DNA of 6,592 nucleotides from a virus (lineage: Duplodnaviria > Heunggongvirae > Uroviricota > Caudoviricetes), in IMG/VR virus record IMGVR_UViG_2547132273_000014, positions 1 to 6,592 of that record; one strand, given 5' to 3'. The notes beneath the pieces are model-generated. The model saw only the letters and a program-made list of their open reading frames with translations. It was not told the origin of the DNA and ran no database searches. This document shows, piece after piece, positions 1 to 6,592 of this stretch; positions within the stretch are counted from its first letter, which is position 1; each line of letters starts with the position of its first letter. The position numbers were made by a program, and so were the translations under genes.

Positions 1-156
1 TTCGGTATCGATATGAACACCGACCACACGCTGGAAGAAGTGGGTAAACAGTTCGACGTTACCCGTGAACGTATCCGTCAGATCGAAGCGAAGGCGCTGC
101 GTAAACTGCGTCACCCGAGCCGTTCTGAAGTACTGCGTAGCTTCCTGGACGATTAA
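1..156 (+). CDS. rpoD: RNA polymerase sigma-70 factor, C-terminal end (5'-partial, truncated by window start)
   Basis: Frame 1 translates to [51 protein letters not shown], which I recognise as the region 4 C-terminus of E. coli sigma-70. TAA stop at 154-156, followed by hairpins and a T-run. Confidence 0.93.
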
Positions 157-209
157 TCGGTAGGCCGGATCAGGCGTTACACCACATCCGGCACTTTTCC
201 CTTTGCACA

Positions 210-236
210 AACGCCACCTTTTCGGTGGCGTTTTTT
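210..236. terminator. Rho-independent terminator shared by convergent rpoD and mug
   Basis: GC-rich stem AACGCCACC (210-218) / GGTGGCGTT (224-232) with 5-nt loop, then T6 (231-236) on the plus strand; the complementary A/T run gives a weaker U-tract on the minus strand just after the mug stop (235-237). A second hairpin (GCCGGAT 164-170 / ATCCGGC 186-192) lies upstream. Confidence 0.7.
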
Positions 237-741
237 ATCGCCCACGCACTACCAGCGCCTGGTCCAGTTCCCGATACGCCTCAACCAGTTTCTCCAGTGA
301 AACGCGACTTAAACCGCTGGGATTTGGCAGTACCCAAATCTGCGTCGAACCAATAGTGAGCGTTTGCTTCCCCCACTGTGCACCGCGTTGGCTGAATCCT
401 TGCTCAAACGCCTGTTTGCCCAGAATTGCCAACGCTTGTGGTTGGTAATCTTCAATTTTTTCAATCAGCTTACGCCCGCCTGCGTGCAGCTCCTGCTTTG
501 AAACTTCATTGGCTTGCACTGTTGGACGGTCTACAAGTTTGGTGACACCACAACGATAATCCAGCAGATGCTGTGCCTCCTGCGGCTTCAACTGACGGTC
601 GGTAAACCCAGCCTGATATATCACCTTCCAGAAGCGATTTGCCGGATGAGCAAAGGGAAAACCAGTTCCGGCGGATGAAAGACCAGGATTGATACCGCAA
701 AACACAACCCGTAACCCTGGAGCCAAAATATCCTCAACCAT
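235..741 (-). CDS. mug: G/U mismatch-specific DNA glycosylase (Mug)
   Basis: 168-aa [43 protein letters not shown]... matches my recollection of E. coli Mug in length and sequence; it sits convergent to rpoD, as in the E. coli chromosome. Confidence 0.9.
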
Positions 742-827
742 ATTTACTCCTTTCTAACATCACCAGGAAAAGTATAACGGATTGAAAATACATTGTTTAT
801 AAAAACAGCAGGCGAGCGGTAATGGCT

Positions 828-855
828 GGATTGCGACACGGAGTTACTTTATAAT
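828..855 (+). promoter_or_regulatory. Candidate sigma-70 promoter for the tRNA gene (consensus -10 TATAAT, weak -35)
   Basis: Perfect TATAAT at 850-855, about 10 nt before the tRNA 5' end at 866. The best -35 candidate is TGGATT (828-833, 16-bp spacer); a better hexamer TTGCGA (832-837) has only a 12-bp spacer. The -35 assignment is uncertain. Confidence 0.4.
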
Positions 856-865
856 CCGCTACCAT

Positions 866-941
866 GGCCCCTTAGCTCAGTGGTTAGAGCAGGCGACTCA
901 TAATCGCTTGGTCGTTGGTTCAAACCCAACAGGGGCCACCA
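866..941 (+). tRNA. ileX: tRNA with CAU anticodon; by genomic position (downstream of rpoD-mug) the minor isoleucine tRNA (lysidine-modified)
   Basis: 76-nt cloverleaf: acceptor GGCCCCT/AGGGGCC, D-stem GCTC/GAGC, anticodon stem GGCGA/TCGCT with loop CTCATAA (anticodon CAT), T-stem GTTGG/CCAAC, discriminator A and encoded CCA (939-941). Isoacceptor identity (Ile2 versus Met) is inferred from context, not from the sequence alone. Confidence 0.85.
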
Positions 942-949
942 TATCTATC

Positions 950-986
950 AAGGGGTTACGTTAACAGCGTGACCCCTTCGTTTTTT
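950..986 (+). terminator. Rho-independent terminator following the tRNA
   Basis: Stem 950-960 pairs with 968-978 (AAGGGGTTACG / CGTGACCCCTT, one G-U pair), 7-nt loop, then CG + T6 at 981-986. Confidence 0.55.
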
Positions 987-987
987 C

Positions 988-1007
988 TAGGATACCTATA
1001 GGATACC
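988..1007. repeat. Tandem direct repeat TAGGATACC-TA-TAGGATACC (11-bp period)
   Basis: Exact 9-mer at 988-996 and 999-1007, immediately after the tRNA terminator. Candidate recombinase or arm-type binding site at the island boundary; function not established. Confidence 0.45.
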
Positions 1008-1266
1008 GTGACAGAGTATAAGCAGGTATAAAAACAACAAGTTACGCAACATCATACCTGTCATGAAACTTTAACTATCCGACATGATAGCTGGTCGATG
1101 ATCACGGATAATCCGTTATGTGGATCCCCATATCGGCATCAGGCCCACCAGCGTGAAGCGTTTTTCATTTTTCGCGGGTATAAAAAATCGATGGGGCTGG
1201 CAGTCCGGAAGACGTCAGGGTACAGAGATTTGACCCGCCCCTCCCTGTGCATGGGCACAATAAGTA

Positions 1267-1292
1267 ACCGAAGGCGGAATTCCGCCCTCGGT
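1267..1292. promoter_or_regulatory. 26-bp near-perfect palindrome (core GGCGGAATTCCGCC)
   Basis: ACCGAAGGCGGAATTCCGCCCTCGGT; 14-bp perfect core at 1273-1286, arms extend to 13 bp with one mismatched pair (1272/1287). No adjacent U-tract on either strand, so it is not an intrinsic terminator. Confidence 0.4.
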
Positions 1293-1326
1293 ACTCACAT
1301 ATGAGAAACGATATTTCTTCCTCTGA

Positions 1327-1397
1327 TACCCAAAATATGGGTATCACAAGTAACCCCCAAAATCTGGGTGTTGCTCTTACTACCCAAACTACGGGTA
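1327..1397. promoter_or_regulatory. Array of three 17-bp palindromic operator-like sites (YACCC-N7-GGGTR) at an exact 27-bp period
   Basis: TACCCAAAATATGGGTA (1327-1343), CCCCCAAAATCTGGGTG (1354-1370), TACCCAAACTACGGGTA (1381-1397). The centre-to-centre spacing is 27 bp twice and the spacers are A/T-rich. Confidence 0.5.
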
Positions 1398-1417
1398 GTT
1401 TCCGTAATTTCATGGTC

Positions 1418-1464
1418 GAGTTGCAGATCTGCAACTCACCCACCAGCCAACGCAATTTTGCGTT
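1418..1464. promoter_or_regulatory. 20-bp perfect palindrome GAGTTGCAGATCTGCAACTC (1418-1437) plus 7-2-7 inverted repeat AACGCAA-TT-TTGCGTT (1449-1464)
   Basis: Both are exact in the sequence and lie 20-65 bp downstream of the stop of the 126-aa minus-strand ORF. Neither is followed by a U-tract. Confidence 0.45.
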
Positions 1465-1482
1465 ATCGGGAATATCAGCAAG

Positions 1483-1863
1483 TTACCGCCGCAGCCGTTC
1501 CGGCTTCTTCCACTGGTAAGTATTTTTCGCGCTCTCCCTCCGTTGTTGAGAACGGCGACGGTATGCCAGCAACTCAAGGACTCTGGTTCGTATGTTGCAC
1601 ATATCCACGCCGTTAAGCTCAATACCATCACGGCGCATCACCTCAGCAACAACACGCGCGTAATTTTCGGCTATCACGCTGTCCGGCTGCGTGGCCTCCT
1701 GTTCGCCAGCCTGCTGGCTGATTCCGGTAATACTGCGGATTATCCCGAGCGCTTCGGTCTCGGTCATGGTCATGGTCATGGCCTCCATAGTGATGGCGGG
1801 TCCTCCTTGTGGGGTGCCCTGCCACGGGGCGGGAGCATCGCGGAAAAAGGCTAGTTTTTGCAT
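1483..1863 (-). CDS. Hypothetical protein downstream of the small terminase gene (start uncertain, likely internal at about 1773-1788)
   Basis: 126-aa ORF in the same orientation as the packaging genes, with a basic C-terminus. The first ATG (1863) lacks an RBS. A GGAGG at 1783-1787 precedes three tandem in-frame ATGs formed by (ATGACC)x3 at 1762-1779; the ATG at 1771-1773 has the best spacing (8 nt). I recognise no protein family. Confidence 0.4.
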   Translation of the reverse strand: MQKLAFFRDAPAPWQGTPQGGPAITMEAMTMTMTETEALGIIRSITGISQQAGEQEATQPDSVIAENYARVVAEVMRRDGIELNGVDMCNIRTRVLELLAYRRRSQQRRESAKNTYQWKKPERLRR

Positions 1864-2024
1864 TTTTATTCGTCATCACCACCAATGCAATATATTGATA
1901 TGACTTGATGTTTTATTTTTCGGTGTCGATTTCGATTGTTTTTTGTTCATCACTGACGCATAACGCCCACCAGCGCAACGCTGAAAGCCAGTCAGTAAAC
2001 TGGCTTCGGTCATTGTGCACTACG

Positions 2025-2567
2025 TTACTTGTCTTTATCCGGCTGAAACTTATCAGGCACATTTCCGGTAGTTTCCATCAGATAATCGGACAGCATTCGC
2101 GGGATGTTTTCATCAAGTTTTGTGCATGCGTTACAGGCTCTGACAACTTCTTTTTTCAGGCCATCCAGCATGACGGGGGTCATCTGTGGGAAGCTCCTTT
2201 GCATAGTAAGCGGGAGGCTGTCCATGATTGATGAAATCTGACTCGCCAGTTTTGAAAGCGCGTACATGCAAAACTCTGTATCAATCACGTCACCGCGATC
2301 GCGCTCGTTTTTAAGTTCCTGCGCCTCCGCCTGTGCTGTCAGTAATCTGATCCTGACTCGTAAGAGTTCATCATCATCAATCTCGCCTTTGTCGTTTGTA
2401 AGCTGGCTAATTGCATTGTTAACCCTATTGTCTATCACGCTGGCAACATCATAAAACGCCTCACGGCCTTTACGTTCAACGGGAGTCACTCCCCACTTGT
2501 CGAATGCTGTAGCACTTACCCGGCAGCTTTGCGCCATGGTTTTTTTGTTCATCAGGTGCGATTTCAT
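2025..2567 (-). CDS. Phage lambda Nu1-like terminase small subunit (TerS)
   Basis: The translation aligns along its whole length with lambda gpNu1 as I recall it, for example RLLTAQAEAQELKNERDRGDVIDTEFCMYALSKLASQISSIMDSLPLTMQRSFPQ against lambda RLTRAQADAQELKNARDSAEVVETAFCTFVLSRIAGEIASILDGLPLSVQRRFPE, and C-terminal DENIPRMLSDYLMETTG against DELIPGLLSEYIEQSG. The N-terminal segment MNKKTMAQSCRVSATAFDKWGV is more divergent. It lies immediately downstream of a cos site, as in lambda. The ORF-track start at 2570 is TTG; ATG starts are at 2567 and 2552. Confidence 0.85.
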   Translation of the reverse strand: MKSHLMNKKTMAQSCRVSATAFDKWGVTPVERKGREAFYDVASVIDNRVNNAISQLTNDKGEIDDDELLRVRIRLLTAQAEAQELKNERDRGDVIDTEFCMYALSKLASQISSIMDSLPLTMQRSFPQMTPVMLDGLKKEVVRACNACTKLDENIPRMLSDYLMETTGNVPDKFQPDKDK

Positions 2568-2574
2568 CAATATC

Positions 2575-2745
2575 CCAACTTGGTCAAGGTTTCAGGTTGG
2601 TGTGTTGGTGTTATCTTTCCCTTTTTATTCATGGAGATAGAGCAAACAACAAAACCACCACCACCACCCTGAAAAAGCTCATAAATAGCGAAAAACCGCG
2701 AGGTCGCCGCCCCGTAGCCTACCGGATCGCCGGAAAGGACCCGCC
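2575..2745 (-). other. Lambda-type cos site: cosQ-like and cosN (12-nt cohesive end GGGCGGCGACCT, 2701-2712) with a divergent cosB-like region toward the TerS start
   Basis: The minus strand reads GGGTCCTTTCCGGCGATCCGGTAGGCTACG-GGGCGGCGACCT-CGCGGTTTTTCGCTATTTATGA, which is almost base-for-base the lambda right-end/cos/left-end sequence as I recall it (lambda: ...GGGTCCTTTCCGGTGATCCGACAGGTTACG GGGCGGCGACCT CGCGGGTTTTCGCTATTTATGA). The 130 bp between cosN and the TerS start do not resemble lambda cosB. Confidence 0.8.
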
Positions 2746-2768
2746 AGCCAGAACGGGCCCTAATTTCA

Positions 2769-3152
2769 TCAACCAATCAACTTATAGCGACCATCCCGTG
2801 CATTGCGACGTACACGCTCAATCTTGAGGCATAGCGCCGCATCTGGCTTTTTTGGGACAGGTACGCGGCAATATTCAGAAGCTCGAGGAATATTGTTTAT
2901 CCAGTCGATCACTTCACTTAAATACCAGGCCTTACGCCCTTCCGTAACCTGTACGCGCTCGGGGAACTCTCCGCGAGCCTCAAGGTTTAGCAATGTGCGA
3001 CGGCTAAGGGTAGTAAGTTCCATCACCTGATTCATATCAACAAGGCGTTCACTTAAACGCATTTTGTCAGCAATAGCCTTTAATTCCTCTACTGCTGGAT
3101 CCGGATACATCATTTCGGCAATTGGCTTAAGGTCATTGTAATGATTCTGCAT
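2769..3152 (-). CDS. 127-aa DNA-binding protein with an AlpA/Vis/excisionase-type winged HTH (MerR superfamily), flanked by N- and C-terminal extensions
   Basis: Central motif MELTTLSRRTLLNLEARGEFPERVQVTEGRKAWYLSEVIDWI fits the AlpA/Vis-family pattern (L-x-x-LSR-x-T-L...G-x-FP-x-x-V...GR-x-A-W...E-V-x-x-WI). Strong RBS AGGGGG 5 nt upstream of the ATG at 3150-3152. The stop at 2769-2771 is about 25 bp before cosQ. Confidence 0.65.
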   Translation of the reverse strand: MQNHYNDLKPIAEMMYPDPAVEELKAIADKMRLSERLVDMNQVMELTTLSRRTLLNLEARGEFPERVQVTEGRKAWYLSEVIDWINNIPRASEYCRVPVPKKPDAALCLKIERVRRNARDGRYKLIG

Positions 3153-3163
3153 TGTATCCCCCT

Positions 3164-3505
3164 TTACACACGAGCCAGCGGCTGAACAGAAATACCTGAG
3201 CCAACAAACGCGGCAACCTTTGCCGACAGTTCTTTTACAGACTCAGGCCAGTTCAGAGCATCAACATTTAAAACACCTGTCTTATAAACCTGTGCCTGTG
3301 TTTTTTTCGCTGTGTCGATTTGTACAGCGGAAACATAAACCGCTTTGCCTGCGCTCGTTCCATCCCATACCACTAGCGCACCAGTTGCATCTTCCTGCAT
3401 CAGTGGCGTAAACGCAGGTATTACCCCTTTATTGGCTGAAAATATCCCCAGCGTAGTAACCAGTGCTTCAGTGCCAGACATGAGTTCAGTGTAATGAGTA
3501 GCCAT
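3164..3505 (-). CDS. Lambda gpD-like head decoration protein
   Basis: 113 aa, against lambda gpD at about 110 aa. Shared motifs with lambda D as I recall it: [27 protein letters not shown] against [42 protein letters not shown] against [25 protein letters not shown] against TAFAGTAISIV. RBS AAGGGGGAG overlaps the upstream stop. Confidence 0.82.
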   Translation of the reverse strand: [113 protein letters not shown]

Positions 3506-3514
3506 TGCTCCCCC

Positions 3515-4561
3515 TTAGCCAATGCGAACGGTAACAAAACGATTGATGCGGGCCGGTATTGGCTGTGGTGCTGAATGTGTCTGCACATATTCAATAGCCG
3601 GATCACCAGGCACAATATAGTTTTTCGGTGCAAGTTCGGCTTTAGTCAGCCCCATCCGAATTAGCTCCGGATCCTGAATACCGCCATAAGCGACAATCCC
3701 CTGAAGAGCCGTATTGCCAAGCACCATCAAATCAGGATCAAGGAAATATTTTTCAGTTCCGTCCTCGTCGGTATAACGCCCGCTGTAAACAACAATCGCA
3801 ACATCGCCCATATACCCTTTAAAACTCACCGAATCACCAAGGTCTTTAAGGGCCGTTTCCAGTTCGGAATTAGAACCTCGACGGGTATCCAGAGCCTCTT
3901 TTACAGCTCTGAATGAGCGGTATTTTTTCCATACATTGCCGCCCATAATAATGATATTAGTGACTCCCTCACTAAATTCTGCGTAGCTCTCAATATCATC
4001 ATTTGGATCAAAAGATCCTTTATCCTTACCTGACCACTCAGCACCGCCAGACTGAGTGATGATATTTTGTGGTTTAATATTCCAGTCCAGTTCATAACGT
4101 TCAATACCATCGCCCTCAATGATATTTTTCCCCGTTGTGATTGCCTGAACAGCAAGCCATTCAATACGTGCACGTATAGCTTTAGCCTGATTTACAATCG
4201 CCTGTTTAACTTTAATATTACGCGCCCCAAAAGCATTGTATTGTTCAGGTGATACACCAGCAGGGCGCACAGCTAACTTATTTGGATCAATGCTGCTTTT
4301 CGGTTTCATATAGCCAGGGCGAATTGTTTTTGATTCGTATCCCTCATCTCGTGAAACTTTACTGCCCACCATAGGAGAGCAAAACGCCGCGATCGGGATA
4401 TTTGGATCGTCGATCGTATCAAGAATAATGTCTCTCGATTCAAACATTACCGAGCGAGTGAAAAACAAACTGGTAAACAACGCATTTAATTTTTTTTGCA
4501 CATCTTCAGCATTAGCCACCTGCACAAGCTGTGTAGGCGAATATAAATCAACCATACTCAT
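3515..4561 (-). CDS. Lambda gpE-like major capsid protein
   Basis: From the internal start MSMVDLYSPTQL... (ATG at 4559-4561; alternative ATG at 4553-4555) the product is 348 aa, against lambda gpE at 341 aa, and aligns throughout with lambda E as I recall it: ITQSGGAEWSGKDKGSFDPNDDIESYA against ITQSGGTEWSKRDKSTYDPTDDIEAYA; LDTRRGSNSELETALKDLGDSVSFKGYMGDVAIVVYSG against LDTRRGSNSELETAVKDLGKAVSYKGMYGDVAIVVYSG; MVLGNT...YGGIQD against MVLGNT...YGCIQD. The ORF-track N-terminal 27 aa (MHLVACIR...) are probably not translated. Confidence 0.88.
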   Translation of the reverse strand: MSMVDLYSPTQLVQVANAEDVQKKLNALFTSLFFTRSVMFESRDIILDTIDDPNIPIAAFCSPMVGSKVSRDEGYESKTIRPGYMKPKSSIDPNKLAVRPAGVSPEQYNAFGARNIKVKQAIVNQAKAIRARIEWLAVQAITTGKNIIEGDGIERYELDWNIKPQNIITQSGGAEWSGKDKGSFDPNDDIESYAEFSEGVTNIIIMGGNVWKKYRSFRAVKEALDTRRGSNSELETALKDLGDSVSFKGYMGDVAIVVYSGRYTDEDGTEKYFLDPDLMVLGNTALQGIVAYGGIQDPELIRMGLTKAELAPKNYIVPGDPAIEYVQTHSAPQPIPARINRFVTVRIG

Positions 4562-4726
4562 CCTCTTTACATTCATTACAAATAATTGTGAATATATTCT
4601 ATTACCGATGTCTGCTATGCGAATACATGCAACCAAGTGCAATGTTGTATAAAATCTGCCGTGACAACTTCAGTGCTGATAATTCGTGTTAATGTATTTA
4701 CTTCCTTTGGTCGGGATTTATGTAGC

Positions 4727-4761
4727 ATGCCGGAAAATCTATTTTCTTCCGGCATTTTTTT
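4727..4761 (+). terminator. Plus-strand-oriented intrinsic-terminator-like hairpin in the SSB/capsid intergenic region
   Basis: 9-bp stem ATGCCGGAA (4727-4735) / TTCCGGCAT (4747-4755), 11-nt loop, then T6 (4756-4761). On the minus strand the run is A-rich before the stem, so it is not a terminator for the flanking minus-strand genes. Confidence 0.4.
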
Positions 4762-4772
4762 ATTTGCAGAAT

Positions 4773-5195
4773 TTAAAACGGTATATTATCGCCGTACGGA
4801 TCATCATTCCCCGACTGTTGTTTTGCCCTGTTCAGTGCGTCAGTAGCCTGGCCCTGTTGACCTTTTTTGCCGCCCGGTCGCGCCGTTCTGGCACTGATTA
4901 CACTGTCTGCGATAACCTGCCAGCCCTGCCGCGTTTCGCCGTTCTGGCCTGTCCACTGGCTTACCTGCATGTTACCCGCCACGCTCACCAGTTCGCCTTT
5001 GTGGTGTTTTGCCAGTGCGTCGGCCTGTCTGCCAAACGCCAGGACGGATAACCACATCGTCGCCGTTCCGTCATCTGCCTGGCTGCACGGAAGTGGGACC
5101 GCCATACTCGCCATCGTCATTTGTGTACCCTTGCTGGTGGTCTTTAACTGCGGGTCAGCCACCAGCCGCCCGTAAGCCGCTATCTGTGCTGTCAT
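4773..5195 (-). CDS. Single-stranded DNA-binding protein (SSB)-like, with acidic C-terminal ...DNIPF tail
   Basis: 140 aa. The OB-fold region resembles E. coli SSB as I recall it: IAAYGRLVADPQLKTT against VILVGNLGQDPEVRYM; MWLSVLAFGRQADALAKHHKGELVSVAGNMQVSQWTGQNGETRQ against [45 protein letters not shown]. A Gly/Gln-rich linker leads to a terminal DDPYGDNIPF, compared with SSB DDDIPF. The start ATG overlaps the stop of the upstream ORF (ATGA). Confidence 0.72.
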   Translation of the reverse strand: MTAQIAAYGRLVADPQLKTTSKGTQMTMASMAVPLPCSQADDGTATMWLSVLAFGRQADALAKHHKGELVSVAGNMQVSQWTGQNGETRQGWQVIADSVISARTARPGGKKGQQGQATDALNRAKQQSGNDDPYGDNIPF

Positions 5196-5437
5196 GCTGT
5201 CTGCTCTCCGGTTTTAACGTTGATGGTTGTCACCTGTTCCGCTTCGGCAATCTCCCGTTCTGTCAGCGTGGCAAAGTTTGCAGCTGCCGTTGTCATGAAT
5301 GAGCTAATCAGTTCGGGATGTGCTTTCGCATATCCTTCCCCGGCGTTGCGGTCGATGATTTTTATCGACACCCTTAACCAGTGTTCCGTCAAATCAAGGG
5401 CGTGCGATTGTGATTTTTTTGTGTGCTTCGCTGTCAT
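5192..5437 (-). CDS. Hypothetical 81-aa protein, translationally coupled to the SSB-like gene
   Basis: ORF MTAKHTKKSQSHALDLTEHWLRVSIKIID... lies between the iteron array and the SSB-like gene in the same orientation, with a 4-bp ATGA stop/start overlap. I recognise no family and the RBS is weak. Confidence 0.45.
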   Translation of the reverse strand: MTAKHTKKSQSHALDLTEHWLRVSIKIIDRNAGEGYAKAHPELISSFMTTAAANFATLTEREIAEAEQVTTINVKTGEQTA

Positions 5438-5482
5438 AGGCTTTATCTCACAGCAGTAAATTAAAATTTTTGCGTTTTAACC

Positions 5483-5712
5483 CTTCACCTGTTCACCTTT
5501 TGATATTTTATCTTTTAATTCATAATGTTAAGGGGTGAACAGTTTCACAAAAACTATTCACCAACTGTTCACCACTGTTCACCCTTGAAGCTCAATAAAC
5601 AATCAAAAAGGTGAACAGTGAATAGTTTGGTGAACAGTTCATAAATAACTGTTCACCCTATAACATACTGATACAAAAGATATTTATGACAGGGTGAACA
5701 GTGGTGAACAGT
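5483..5712. repeat. Iteron array: at least 9 perfect copies of TGTTCACC / GGTGAACA (10-bp unit ACTGTTCACC) in both orientations; P4 ori/crr-like primase-binding repeats
   Basis: Forward TGTTCACC at 5490, 5566, 5576 and 5650. Reverse GGTGAACA at 5534, 5610, 5629, 5693 and 5703. Degenerate copies at 5483-5489, 5555-5562 and 5618-5625. Interspersed A/T-rich tracts (5461-5480, 5498-5530). The array sits directly after the stop of the primase/helicase gene. Confidence 0.8.
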
Positions 5713-5724
5713 TATTCCATAAGT

Positions 5725-6592
5725 TTAATTTTTGCTATCGTCATTAGTGACCGATACACATGATGGCATCCAGTCTTCTGATTCCTCCGTCAGTGTCACG
5801 TTTGAACGCAAACCGTGCTTCGTTTTCCGTTTCATATACTCCCTGCCATATTCCGCCATTGCCCCCGGCATATCTTTACCGAAGCGCGTCAGTGTTACAG
5901 GTTTACCAAACCCATGTGCCCTCATATAAGCCAGATAGGCATGATAGAGATACCTGCGTGGGCTGAATGGCACAATTTCAGCATTACCCACTAACAGGCC
6001 ATCACACATTACCGACGCCATGAGATAGCCGCAGAAGTCCACCAGCGAATCCCCCTCTCGCTTTATCGCCAGTGCTTCTTCAGATTTCTGCTGCTCATAT
6101 AACAGGCGTCTGGCTTCGTCCTGGTCAGCAAACCGTGTAAGCAGATGGCGAATCACTACCGCCAACTCACCTTCTATTTTTTCCGCCAGCATTGGATCGC
6201 GTTCGTTCTCCGGTACAACTTCCGAAAAATTGAATATCACCCGACGACGTGAGATCCCCCCGCTGCGGTCACTGAATGACATGGCGTTATTGTTAACCGC
6301 CAGCACTACTGCCGGAATACGCGTTGAGTAGGGGGCTTTGTGTTTCGGGTCAATTGCCACCTTGTCACCGCCTGTAATGGCCTTAATTCCTGCCCCATCA
6401 CCAGCGTAGCGGGTCATATCCGGCATGATAATCAGCGAAAAGCCAACCACTAACGCGCGTTCCCTTGCATCTTCCAGCGCCTTCATGCTTGCCGATACTG
6501 TGTTGGCCTTACCCGCCAGCATGGTGCAAATCTCCGCCATCACGCTTTTACCACTTCCCCCTGGACCTGTTACCTCAATGAATAACTGCCAG
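5725..6592 (-). CDS. P4-alpha-like primase/helicase, C-terminal helicase portion (5'-partial; continues beyond window end)
   Basis: The open frame runs to the window edge. Its translation contains the Walker A motif in ...WQLFIEVTGPGGSGKSVMAEICTMLAG... and downstream helicase-like motifs (LIIMPDMTRYAGD). It is immediately followed by the TGTTCACC iterons that are the recognition repeats of P4 alpha. The ORF-track start at 6543 is an internal GTG. Confidence 0.8.
   Translation of the reverse strand, partial: WQLFIEVTGPGGSGKSVMAEICTMLAGKANTVSASMKALEDARERALVVGFSLIIMPDMTRYAGDGAGIKAITGGDKVAIDPKHKAPYSTRIPAVVLAVNNNAMSFSDRSGGISRRRVIFNFSEVVPENERDPMLAEKIEGELAVVIRHLLTRFADQDEARRLLYEQQKSEEALAIKREGDSLVDFCGYLMASVMCDGLLVGNAEIVPFSPRRYLYHAYLAYMRAHGFGKPVTLTRFGKDMPGAMAEYGREYMKRKTKHGLRSNVTLTEESEDWMPSCVSVTNDDSKN

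Follow-up and report, generated by a model that had tools for sequence, protein, structure and literature searches.

A probable phage-inducible chromosomal island of the EcCICFT073 type in the 3' end of ileX in Escherichia coli: genes, cos site and a full-length small terminase

Genes and limits of the island at ileX

The window analysed here is a stretch of DNA of 6,592 nucleotides (positions 1 to 6,592 of the IMG/VR virus record IMGVR_UViG_2547132273_000014, Caudoviricetes). It covers the ileX locus of Escherichia coli and the right-hand 5.7 kb of an island that is very probably a classical Gram-negative phage-inducible chromosomal island (PICI) of the EcCICFT073 type, seated in the 3' end of the tRNA gene. 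To the right of ileX all sequence belongs to the island, with the genes on the minus strand. A first-pass annotation, made from the letters alone, had described a Nu1-like small terminase (TerS), a lambda-type cos site, gpE- and gpD-like capsid genes, a gene for a single-stranded DNA-binding protein (SSB), iterons and a P4-alpha-related helicase; profile searches and checks of cos and the iterons found all of them in place. Features of the window (lengths of proteins in amino acids, aa; HTH, helix-turn-helix):

1-156: 3' end of rpoD
235-741, minus strand: mug
866..941, plus strand: ileX tRNA, anticodon CAT (ARAGORN, Rfam); the 3' part from ~896 is the attL core
986..1030, no strand: arm-type repeat with GGATACC motifs, present also at the other island end, inside both ends
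1483..1767, minus strand: conserved terminal PICI gene, 94 aa (phrog_1561, 5.6e-50)
2025..2567, minus strand: TerS, full-length Nu1 family, 180 aa (Pfam Phage_Nu1, 9.8e-23; phrog_57, 6e-52)
2571..2768, minus strand: cos site, with cosQ GGGTCCTTTCCGG, cosN at 2701-2712 and cosB GGTGGTGGTGGTGGTTTTGTTGTTT at ~2640-2665
2769..3152, minus strand: AlpA/Vis-like winged-HTH protein, 127 aa (PF05930, 1.4e-8; phrog_2790, 1.8e-48)
3164..3505, minus strand: gpD-like head decoration protein, 113 aa (HDPD, 2.3e-15)
3515..4555, minus strand: gpE-like major capsid protein (MCP), 346 aa as annotated (Phage_cap_E, 5.9e-41); the mechanical open reading frame (ORF) runs to 4642
4773..5195, minus strand: SSB (PF00436, 4.3e-16; phrog_44)
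5192..5437, minus strand: conserved PICI protein, 81 aa (phrog_1231, 8e-49)
5490..5710, no strand: replication origin with nine exact TGTTCACC iterons and one variant; two inverted sets of them flank an AT-rich centre
5725..6592, minus strand: primase-replicase (Pri-Rep), C-terminal 288 of 605 aa, helicase and ori-binding domain (Pox_D5, DUF5906); the gene runs past the window

The complete element was found in the E. coli chromosome NZ_CP069500.1 (locus L001), which is 100% identical to window positions 942-6592; the island is ~10.55 kb long, lies between ileX and nfeF, and continues for 4.9 kb past the window end. A 65-nt direct repeat of the ileX 3' half was located at both island ends (L001 11955-12019 and 22501-22565, 85% identical to each other). 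The distal copy matches the native ileX 3' end at every position, and in almost all other complete E. coli genomes only this native end matches, so that the ileX sites there are empty. The ileX tRNA expressed here is a chromosome/island hybrid, with the attL core beginning at ~896; the island had been placed correctly at ileX, and its proposed start at 942 has to be moved back into the tRNA gene. The 3' half of ileX is here island-derived, and several stem positions differ from the displaced native copy (85% over 65 nt). The tRNA at 866-941 was called Met (CAT) by ARAGORN and is annotated as tRNA-Ile in RefSeq, as expected for ileX; it was the sole match in an Rfam scan of the window.

The two copies of the arm-type repeat (family D2; L001 12045-12089 and 22371-22415) are 78% identical, and their GGATACC motifs are likely to be arm-binding sites of the integrase. 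Of 5426 complete E. coli genomes, 55 have the integrase and attachment (att) module of the ileX type; Table S1 of the 2018 paper (PMC6092414) does not list ileX as an att site.

Past the window end the island carries a DUF4222 gene, two small ORFs, an Icd-like gene, YlcI/YnfO, a 62-aa HTH protein of HTH_17/MerR-like type downstream of int (1.1e-12), a 228-aa ORF that overlaps the integrase gene, and a 475-aa tyrosine integrase (Arm-DNA-bind_3 and Phage_integrase domains). Extension of the sequence thus supplied the integrase and the second att repeat that had been proposed as a check, and no contiguous prophage morphogenesis genes. PADLOC, NCBIfam and Pfam gave nothing for the hypothetical proteins of 228, 106, 81 and 94 aa.

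Components of a Gram-negative PICI

The PICI model of SatelliteFinder uses five core markers, namely integrase, regulator (alpA, merR or stl type), primase-replicase, capsid morphogenesis and small terminase, and forbids tail, holin, portal, head-tail connector and adaptor genes; 375 elements with all five markers are on record, 97% of them in E. coli (PMC10085698). The island has the 475-aa integrase at one end, with ileX repeats at both ends and empty sites in other genomes. The 62-aa HTH_17/MerR-like protein and the 127-aa protein with a Phage_AlpA domain are, by sequence, of the regulator type; D5_N, DUF5906 and Pox_D5 domains mark the primase-replicase, which has the iteron origin just downstream. 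Capsid morphogenesis is represented by the Phage_cap_E protein (54% identical to c1499 of EcCICFT073), the small terminase by a protein that matches Phage_Nu1 and aligns over its full length with Nu1 and N15 gp1. None of the forbidden genes is in the RefSeq annotation of the island. Judged against the published component list, the island would be a Type A PICI in SatelliteFinder terms.

Genes for the large terminase subunit (TerL), portal, protease, scaffold, tail and lysis were absent from the RefSeq annotation of the complete 10.55-kb island; lambda A, W, B, C, Nu3, FI and FII gave nothing against the whole island in tblastn, and only Nu1, D and E have homologues there. The absence of the remaining lambdoid morphogenesis and lysis genes, asserted at first for the window, thus extends to the whole element, and the description of a mosaic, purpose-built, helper-dependent satellite in place of a decayed prophage is borne out. 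Two further assignments were tried and rejected: a capsid-forming PICI (cf-PICI), of whose full head set (portal, protease, head-tail connectors, TerL, HNH) no part was annotated or detected; and a lambdoid prophage, intact or defective, since homologues are limited to Nu1, D and E and the order E-D-HTH-cos-TerS is not that of lambda.

Full-length Pri-Rep (L001 16784-18601) contains a D5_N domain and matches TIGR01613 ('primase, P4 family'). Residues 113-595 are 48% identical to residues 290-771 of P4 alpha; identity to EcCICFT073 Pri is 49%. The N-terminal ~110 residues are of PICI type and shared with EcCICFT073 Pri, and the P4 primase domain is absent. Pri-Rep is thus a chimera of a PICI-type N-terminus and a P4-alpha-like helicase/ori-binding part. 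The first-pass annotation had spoken of a P4-type replication module, which holds for the helicase/ori-binding part and for the octamer and fails for the primase domain. The nine iterons lie directly 3' of the Pri-Rep gene; TGTTCACC does not occur elsewhere in the window outside 5490-5710, and with one mismatch allowed 20 matches were counted against 5.9 expected (0 of 200 shuffles reached 20). The octamer is the annotated 'ori type 1 repeat' of the P4 record, and the iteron layout matches the PICI origins of Fig. 2 in PMC6092414. A small hypothetical gene directly upstream of the SSB gene, like the 81-aa gene here, is found in other PICIs as well.

The MCP is 42% identical to lambda E; structural matches in the PDB were 3bqw (1e-120, top) and lambda gpE (3.7e-76). 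Entry 3bqw is titled 'putative capsid protein of prophage', and over the aligned stretch its residues agree with those of CFT073 c1499. Among PDB entries, the head decoration protein 1td0 gave 2.8e-16 with the gpD-like protein, and 7vii_H, which is the lambda capsid decoration protein, 1.3e-12. The 127-aa AlpA-like protein shares 37.5% identity with P4 ORF88/Vis and 74% with its counterpart in PICIs embedded in helper prophages; its gene sits between the decoration gene and cos, and the separate small HTH gene adjoins the integrase. Ratios of nonsynonymous to synonymous substitution rates (dN/dS) were 0.08 for the AlpA-like protein, 0.19 for the gpD-like protein, 0.21 for TerS and 0.24 for the terminal 94-aa protein (the last against the PICI of E. 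coli O157); for the MCP against the embedded PICI at locus L010, dN was 0.074 with dS saturated. These values indicate purifying selection on all five genes (dN/dS 0.08-0.24 apart from the MCP).

The AlpA-like protein travels across genera with the lineage of 346-aa MCP and 113-aa decoration protein, in place of the unrelated c1501-type gene of other PICIs. It was considered as an analogue of the Rpp proteins, which redirect packaging in EcCICFT073, and rejected: it has no similarity to RppA and resembles P4 Vis.

Small terminase, cos site and proposed packaging

TerS aligns end to end, C-terminal region included, with lambda Nu1, N15 gp1 and TerS of the phage-21 type (33-39% identity to lambdoid TerS over the full length; 47% to N15 gp1). 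The N-terminal DNA-binding region is closest to N15 gp1 (31 of 59 residues identical, with the same deletion relative to lambda); the central and C-terminal parts align with Nu1 (..LDE.IP..L.DY..) and are followed by a 12-residue extension. In lambda, the C-terminal region of TerS binds TerL (PMC9026076). The island protein appears to combine an N15-like DNA-binding N-terminus with a Nu1-like C-terminal part for oligomerisation and TerL binding. RppA showed no similarity to TerS or to the 127-aa HTH protein, a tblastn search of the island with RppA yielded nothing beyond 30 matching residues within the primase gene (E 0.01), and a PDB sequence search with TerS returned no significant match, neither RppC nor the Nu1 N-domain; the island is in these comparisons not a cos PICI of the Rpp type.

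The first 60 residues are almost invariant among PICI TerS proteins (56-59 of 60). Against the O157 PICI, the first 140 codons gave dS ~0.2 and dN ~0.03, and the last 40 codons (window 2025-2144) dS 1.59 and dN 0.26, with 21-22 of 40 residues identical. The C-terminal 40 codons thus behave as a swapped or recombined cassette, and swapped tails may fit matching to different helper TerLs. A scan of genome contigs with the single TerS protein found no relatives, and searches for homologous proteins and for the contigs encoding them were used instead; the identical protein (WP_000835287.1) occurs in islands at cspD-clpS. A literature search with protein accession numbers found no paper.

The cosN sequence GGGCGGCGACCT (2701-2712, minus strand) is the exact cohesive-end 12-mer of lambda, and its flanks and cosQ are lambda-like; ~78 bp of the site are 88-91% identical to cos in phage 21 and in lambda-type phages. 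While cosQ and cosN are nearly identical to lambda, the sequence from ~+40 onward is common only to other TerS-type PICIs, and cosB is of an island-specific type, shared with these PICIs alone and containing the segment GGTGGTGG...TTGTTGTTT. The comparison of cosB covered the window and loci L004, L005, L010, L014, L016-L018, L012 and L008. All eight PICIs with an N15-like TerS N-terminus carry GGTGGTGGTG..TTGTTGTT at ~+45 to +68 from cosN; phage N15 has GAGGTTGTTGTTT in a similar place (~+48 to +60); the PICI with a lambda/21-type TerS N-terminus (L012) has a lambda-like cosB. The type of the TerS DNA-binding domain and the type of cosB thus co-vary across eight PICIs, N15 and one PICI with a lambda/21-type TerS.

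The window island has one cosN only. In EcCICFT073, cos1 shows an inverse-looking CACCACCACCAC at the same distance from cosN. A second, inverted cos with a lambda-like cosB lies downstream of TerS in EcCIIHE3034 (L018 10367) and in the O157 PICI (L004 11347), and resembles cos2 of EcCICFT073.

By homology with EcCICFT073, a lambdoid helper would induce the island; excision would follow, the island would replicate from the TGTTCACC origin into concatemers, and these would be cut at cosN and packaged by helper TerL into particles built by the helper. Four island units amount to 42.2 kb and would, as a matter of arithmetic only, fill a lambda-size head. The Rpp proteins (144-153 aa) share only the winged-helix domain with TerS and are devoid of the C-terminal TerL-binding part (PMC6739421, PMC9026076); they must therefore bind helper TerS. 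From the full-length Nu1-like TerS, the co-variation with cosB and the swapped tail we infer a different route for the island: its TerS would bind its own cosB through the N15-like winged-helix domain, and the Nu1-like C-terminal part would recruit helper TerL directly, steering packaging to island DNA. That the N15-like TerS reads the private cosB and recruits helper TerL without helper TerS is put at about an even chance. The TerS state could be the ancestral one, with Rpp arising by loss of the TerL-binding tail; an origin of Rpp from TerS was suggested by the authors who described Rpp (PMC6739421).

Alternatives and relation to known elements

Several observations weigh against the assignment and the packaging route given above. 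The integrase is only ~22% identical to those of EcCICFT073 and P4, and the small HTH protein beside it showed no similarity to EcCICFT073 AlpA in BLAST. After mitomycin C, transfer of the TerS-encoding IHE3034 and 18098 islands with resident prophages reached only <1 to 110 per ml-equivalent, and their helper was never found (PMC6092414); a literature search found no paper testing a TerS-type cos PICI. The proposed direct contact between TerS and TerL would depend on 10-11 identities in ~27 aligned C-terminal residues and on the 12-residue extension, and tblastn of the C-terminal 47 residues against phages gave ~40% matches to many lambdoid Nu1 tails (E 0.03-0.2), from which no particular helper can be named; no phage carrying such a tail turned up.

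Three other explanations were considered beside a classical PICI. The island might belong to a new satellite class that builds its own gpE/gpD-like shell on helper portal, scaffold and protease and fills it by its own TerS, a state between classical and capsid-forming PICIs. The MCP and decoration protein are of full length, with alignments to lambda E and D that run from end to end; purifying selection on them is strong, and they are kept as a block with the AlpA-like protein across genera and att sites; moreover, the c1499/c1500 pair that was tested is only 54% identical to the pair of the island. Yet that pair holds the same position in EcCICFT073, where transfer and interference were unaffected by deletion of capsid c1499 or decoration c1500 and the packaged DNA was all of phage size (PMC6092414), and a capsid gene is commonplace in Gram-negative PICIs, 21 of the 29 reference elements having one (10.1101/2022.07.18.500453). 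A new class is improbable, and even if real it would be a property of a catalogued family and not of the ileX island alone. The conjunction of both ideas, in which TerS reads a private cosB and recruits TerL without helper TerS while the gpE/gpD-like pair assembles, or co-assembles, satellite-specific shells on helper portal and scaffold, is likewise improbable; if true, it would make the TerS-type cos PICIs a half-way house between classical and capsid-forming PICIs.

A decayed remnant, either of a defective lambdoid prophage or of a dead, immobile PICI, would agree with the poor movement of TerS-type islands in the only published test and with the single cos, where several relatives have two. 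However, all ORFs are intact and under purifying selection, and the att repeats are intact too. Copies of the same body, 98% identical, are joined to various integrases and occupy several att sites, some of them inside prophage genes, which requires recent mobility and recombination; nor would deletion from a lambdoid prophage explain the order E-D-HTH-cos-TerS or the non-phage replication module. This explanation is very unlikely. Less probable still, and hardly credible, is a P4-like satellite that exploits P2-type helpers. The helicase/ori-binding part, the iteron octamer identical to that of P4, the 127-aa protein resembling Vis/ORF88 and the annotated Icd-like gene point towards P4; against these stand the lambda-type and not P2-type cos, the PICI-type N-terminus in place of the alpha primase domain, a gene order that is throughout that of EcCICFT073-type PICIs, and an integrase that resembles P4 Int only weakly (BLASTP: 21% identity, E 0.002; no tblastn match). 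In tblastn of P4 genes against the island no homologue of sid, psu, delta, epsilon or cI was found at E<=0.1 (sid, psu and delta E>=0.3; epsilon no match).

A classical PICI remains the preferred assignment. As a discovery the island matters little: it adds a copy, with a swapped, rare ileX integration module, to a satellite family already catalogued. It bears on how cos PICIs with a complete TerS in place of Rpp get packaged, and by which helper, and on what maintains lambda-like capsid and decoration genes under purifying selection in most Gram-negative PICIs when knockouts in the one model element are without phenotype. The co-variation of TerS domain and cosB, together with the swapped C-terminal tail, offers concrete handles for packaging experiments.

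EcCICFT073 (locus L003), the prototype Gram-negative cos PICI (PMC6092414, PMC6739421), is colinear with the island gene for gene. The common order is int, HTH, YlcI, Icd-like, DUF4222, Pri-Rep, ori iterons, small ORF, SSB, MCP, decoration, one gene, cos, packaging-specificity gene and terminal gene; identities are 54% for the MCP (c1499), 54% for the decoration protein (c1500), 49% for Pri and 70% for the terminal gene, which is the last gene of EcCICFT073 too. The cosQ/cosN sequences are lambda-type in both, and the sizes are ~10.5-11.4 kb. Differences lie in the rppA slot (144 aa, requiring helper TerS), which in the island holds the dissimilar 180-aa Nu1-family TerS; in cosB and the number of cos sites (two in EcCICFT073, one here); in the c1501 slot, filled here by the unrelated AlpA/Vis-like gene; in the iterons, EcCICFT073 having a different sequence and no TGTTCACC cluster; and in the integrase and att site (ycfD-phoQ against ileX). 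The first-pass annotation had proposed that an own TerS with capsid and decoration proteins would be a different hijacking strategy, and had named a gene-for-gene match to a characterised family as the result that would speak against it; with this match the proposal falls. The gene combination is real but is not a new hijacking strategy, being standard in E. coli PICIs. The statement in the first-pass annotation that described E. coli PICIs use Rpp was correct but incomplete; the IHE3034 and 18098 islands 'encode TerS' (PMC6092414).

EcCIIHE3034 (L018), an EcCIDI14-type island (L005) and the O157:H7 PICI at ycfD-phoQ (L004) are colinear with the island as well; each has an MCP gene, a decoration gene, one more gene, cos and a TerS of 180 aa. 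EcCIIHE3034, EcCI18098 and EcCIDI14 are reference PICIs whose TerS is of the same family. TerS of the O157:H7 PICI is 83% identical to that of the island at the protein level; the TerS-cos segments of EcCIIHE3034 and the EcCIDI14-type island are 88-89% identical in DNA, with the cosB motif in common. EcCIIHE3034 and DI14 differ in having the MCP-decoration lineage of 351/111 aa with a c1501-like gene, where the island has 346/113 aa with the AlpA-like gene, and EcCIIHE3034, EcCI18098 and EcCIDI14 differ in the integrase, regulator and att module from the ileX module with its 475-aa integrase. In islands at cspD-clpS, where EcCIIHE3034 and EcCI18098 too are integrated, 7.3 kb of the body (L001 12171-19491) is 98% identical to the ileX island, with differences only at the integrase/regulator end and in ~170 bp at attL. 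Since the body is so closely shared and only the integration end differs, the element is a recombinant in which a known PICI body is joined to an integration module that targets ileX. The swapped module lies at L001 19500-22560, where the integrase, the overlapping 228-aa ORF and the 62-aa HTH gene differ from those of the cspD-clpS islands.

PICIs embedded in helpers (PMC10111431, 10.1101/2022.07.18.500453) have the same late module, MCP346-D113-AlpA127-cos-TerS, with identities to the island of 86% (MCP), 73-75% (decoration protein), 74% (AlpA-like protein) and only 56% (TerS); one E. coli copy, seated in the portal gene of a prophage, has 3.4 kb in common with the island (93% identity). They reside inside the capsid or portal gene of a lambdoid helper and have a RepA-type (AAA_25) helicase, whereas the island occupies a chromosomal tRNA gene and has the P4-alpha-related Pri-Rep. 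Copies in the capsid E gene were seen at loci L010, L011, L014 and L015 (~1100-11900; metagenome, SRA-run and Enterobacter-type contigs) and one in the portal gene at L017 (~6760-17670; E. coli JNE112863); accessory genes in some of these elements encode a TIR-domain (CAP12-PCTIR_TIR) or CoiA-like protein. The reverse pattern is seen in the O157 and IHE3034-type islands, with a close TerS (O157, 83% protein identity), the other MCP/decoration lineage (54%) and a c1501-like gene. The island thus looks like a mosaic within the PICI gene pool.

Likeness to P4 is confined to the alpha helicase/ori-binding part (48%), the TGTTCACC iterons and the Vis/AlpA-like protein; the P4 genes sid, psu, delta, epsilon and cI have no homologues in the island, the cos is not of the P2 type, and the N-terminus of the replication protein is different. 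The pathogenicity islands of Staphylococcus aureus (SaPIs) package by the headful (pac) mechanism and use Ppi to block phage TerS, whereas the ileX island has a cos system with a lambda cosN, and nothing with a Ppi-like role was identified in it. The logic is nevertheless the same, in that SaPI TerS-S, a satellite-encoded small terminase, recognises satellite DNA and uses helper TerL (PMC6739421), and packaging of the ileX island may represent this SaPI logic transposed to a cos system.

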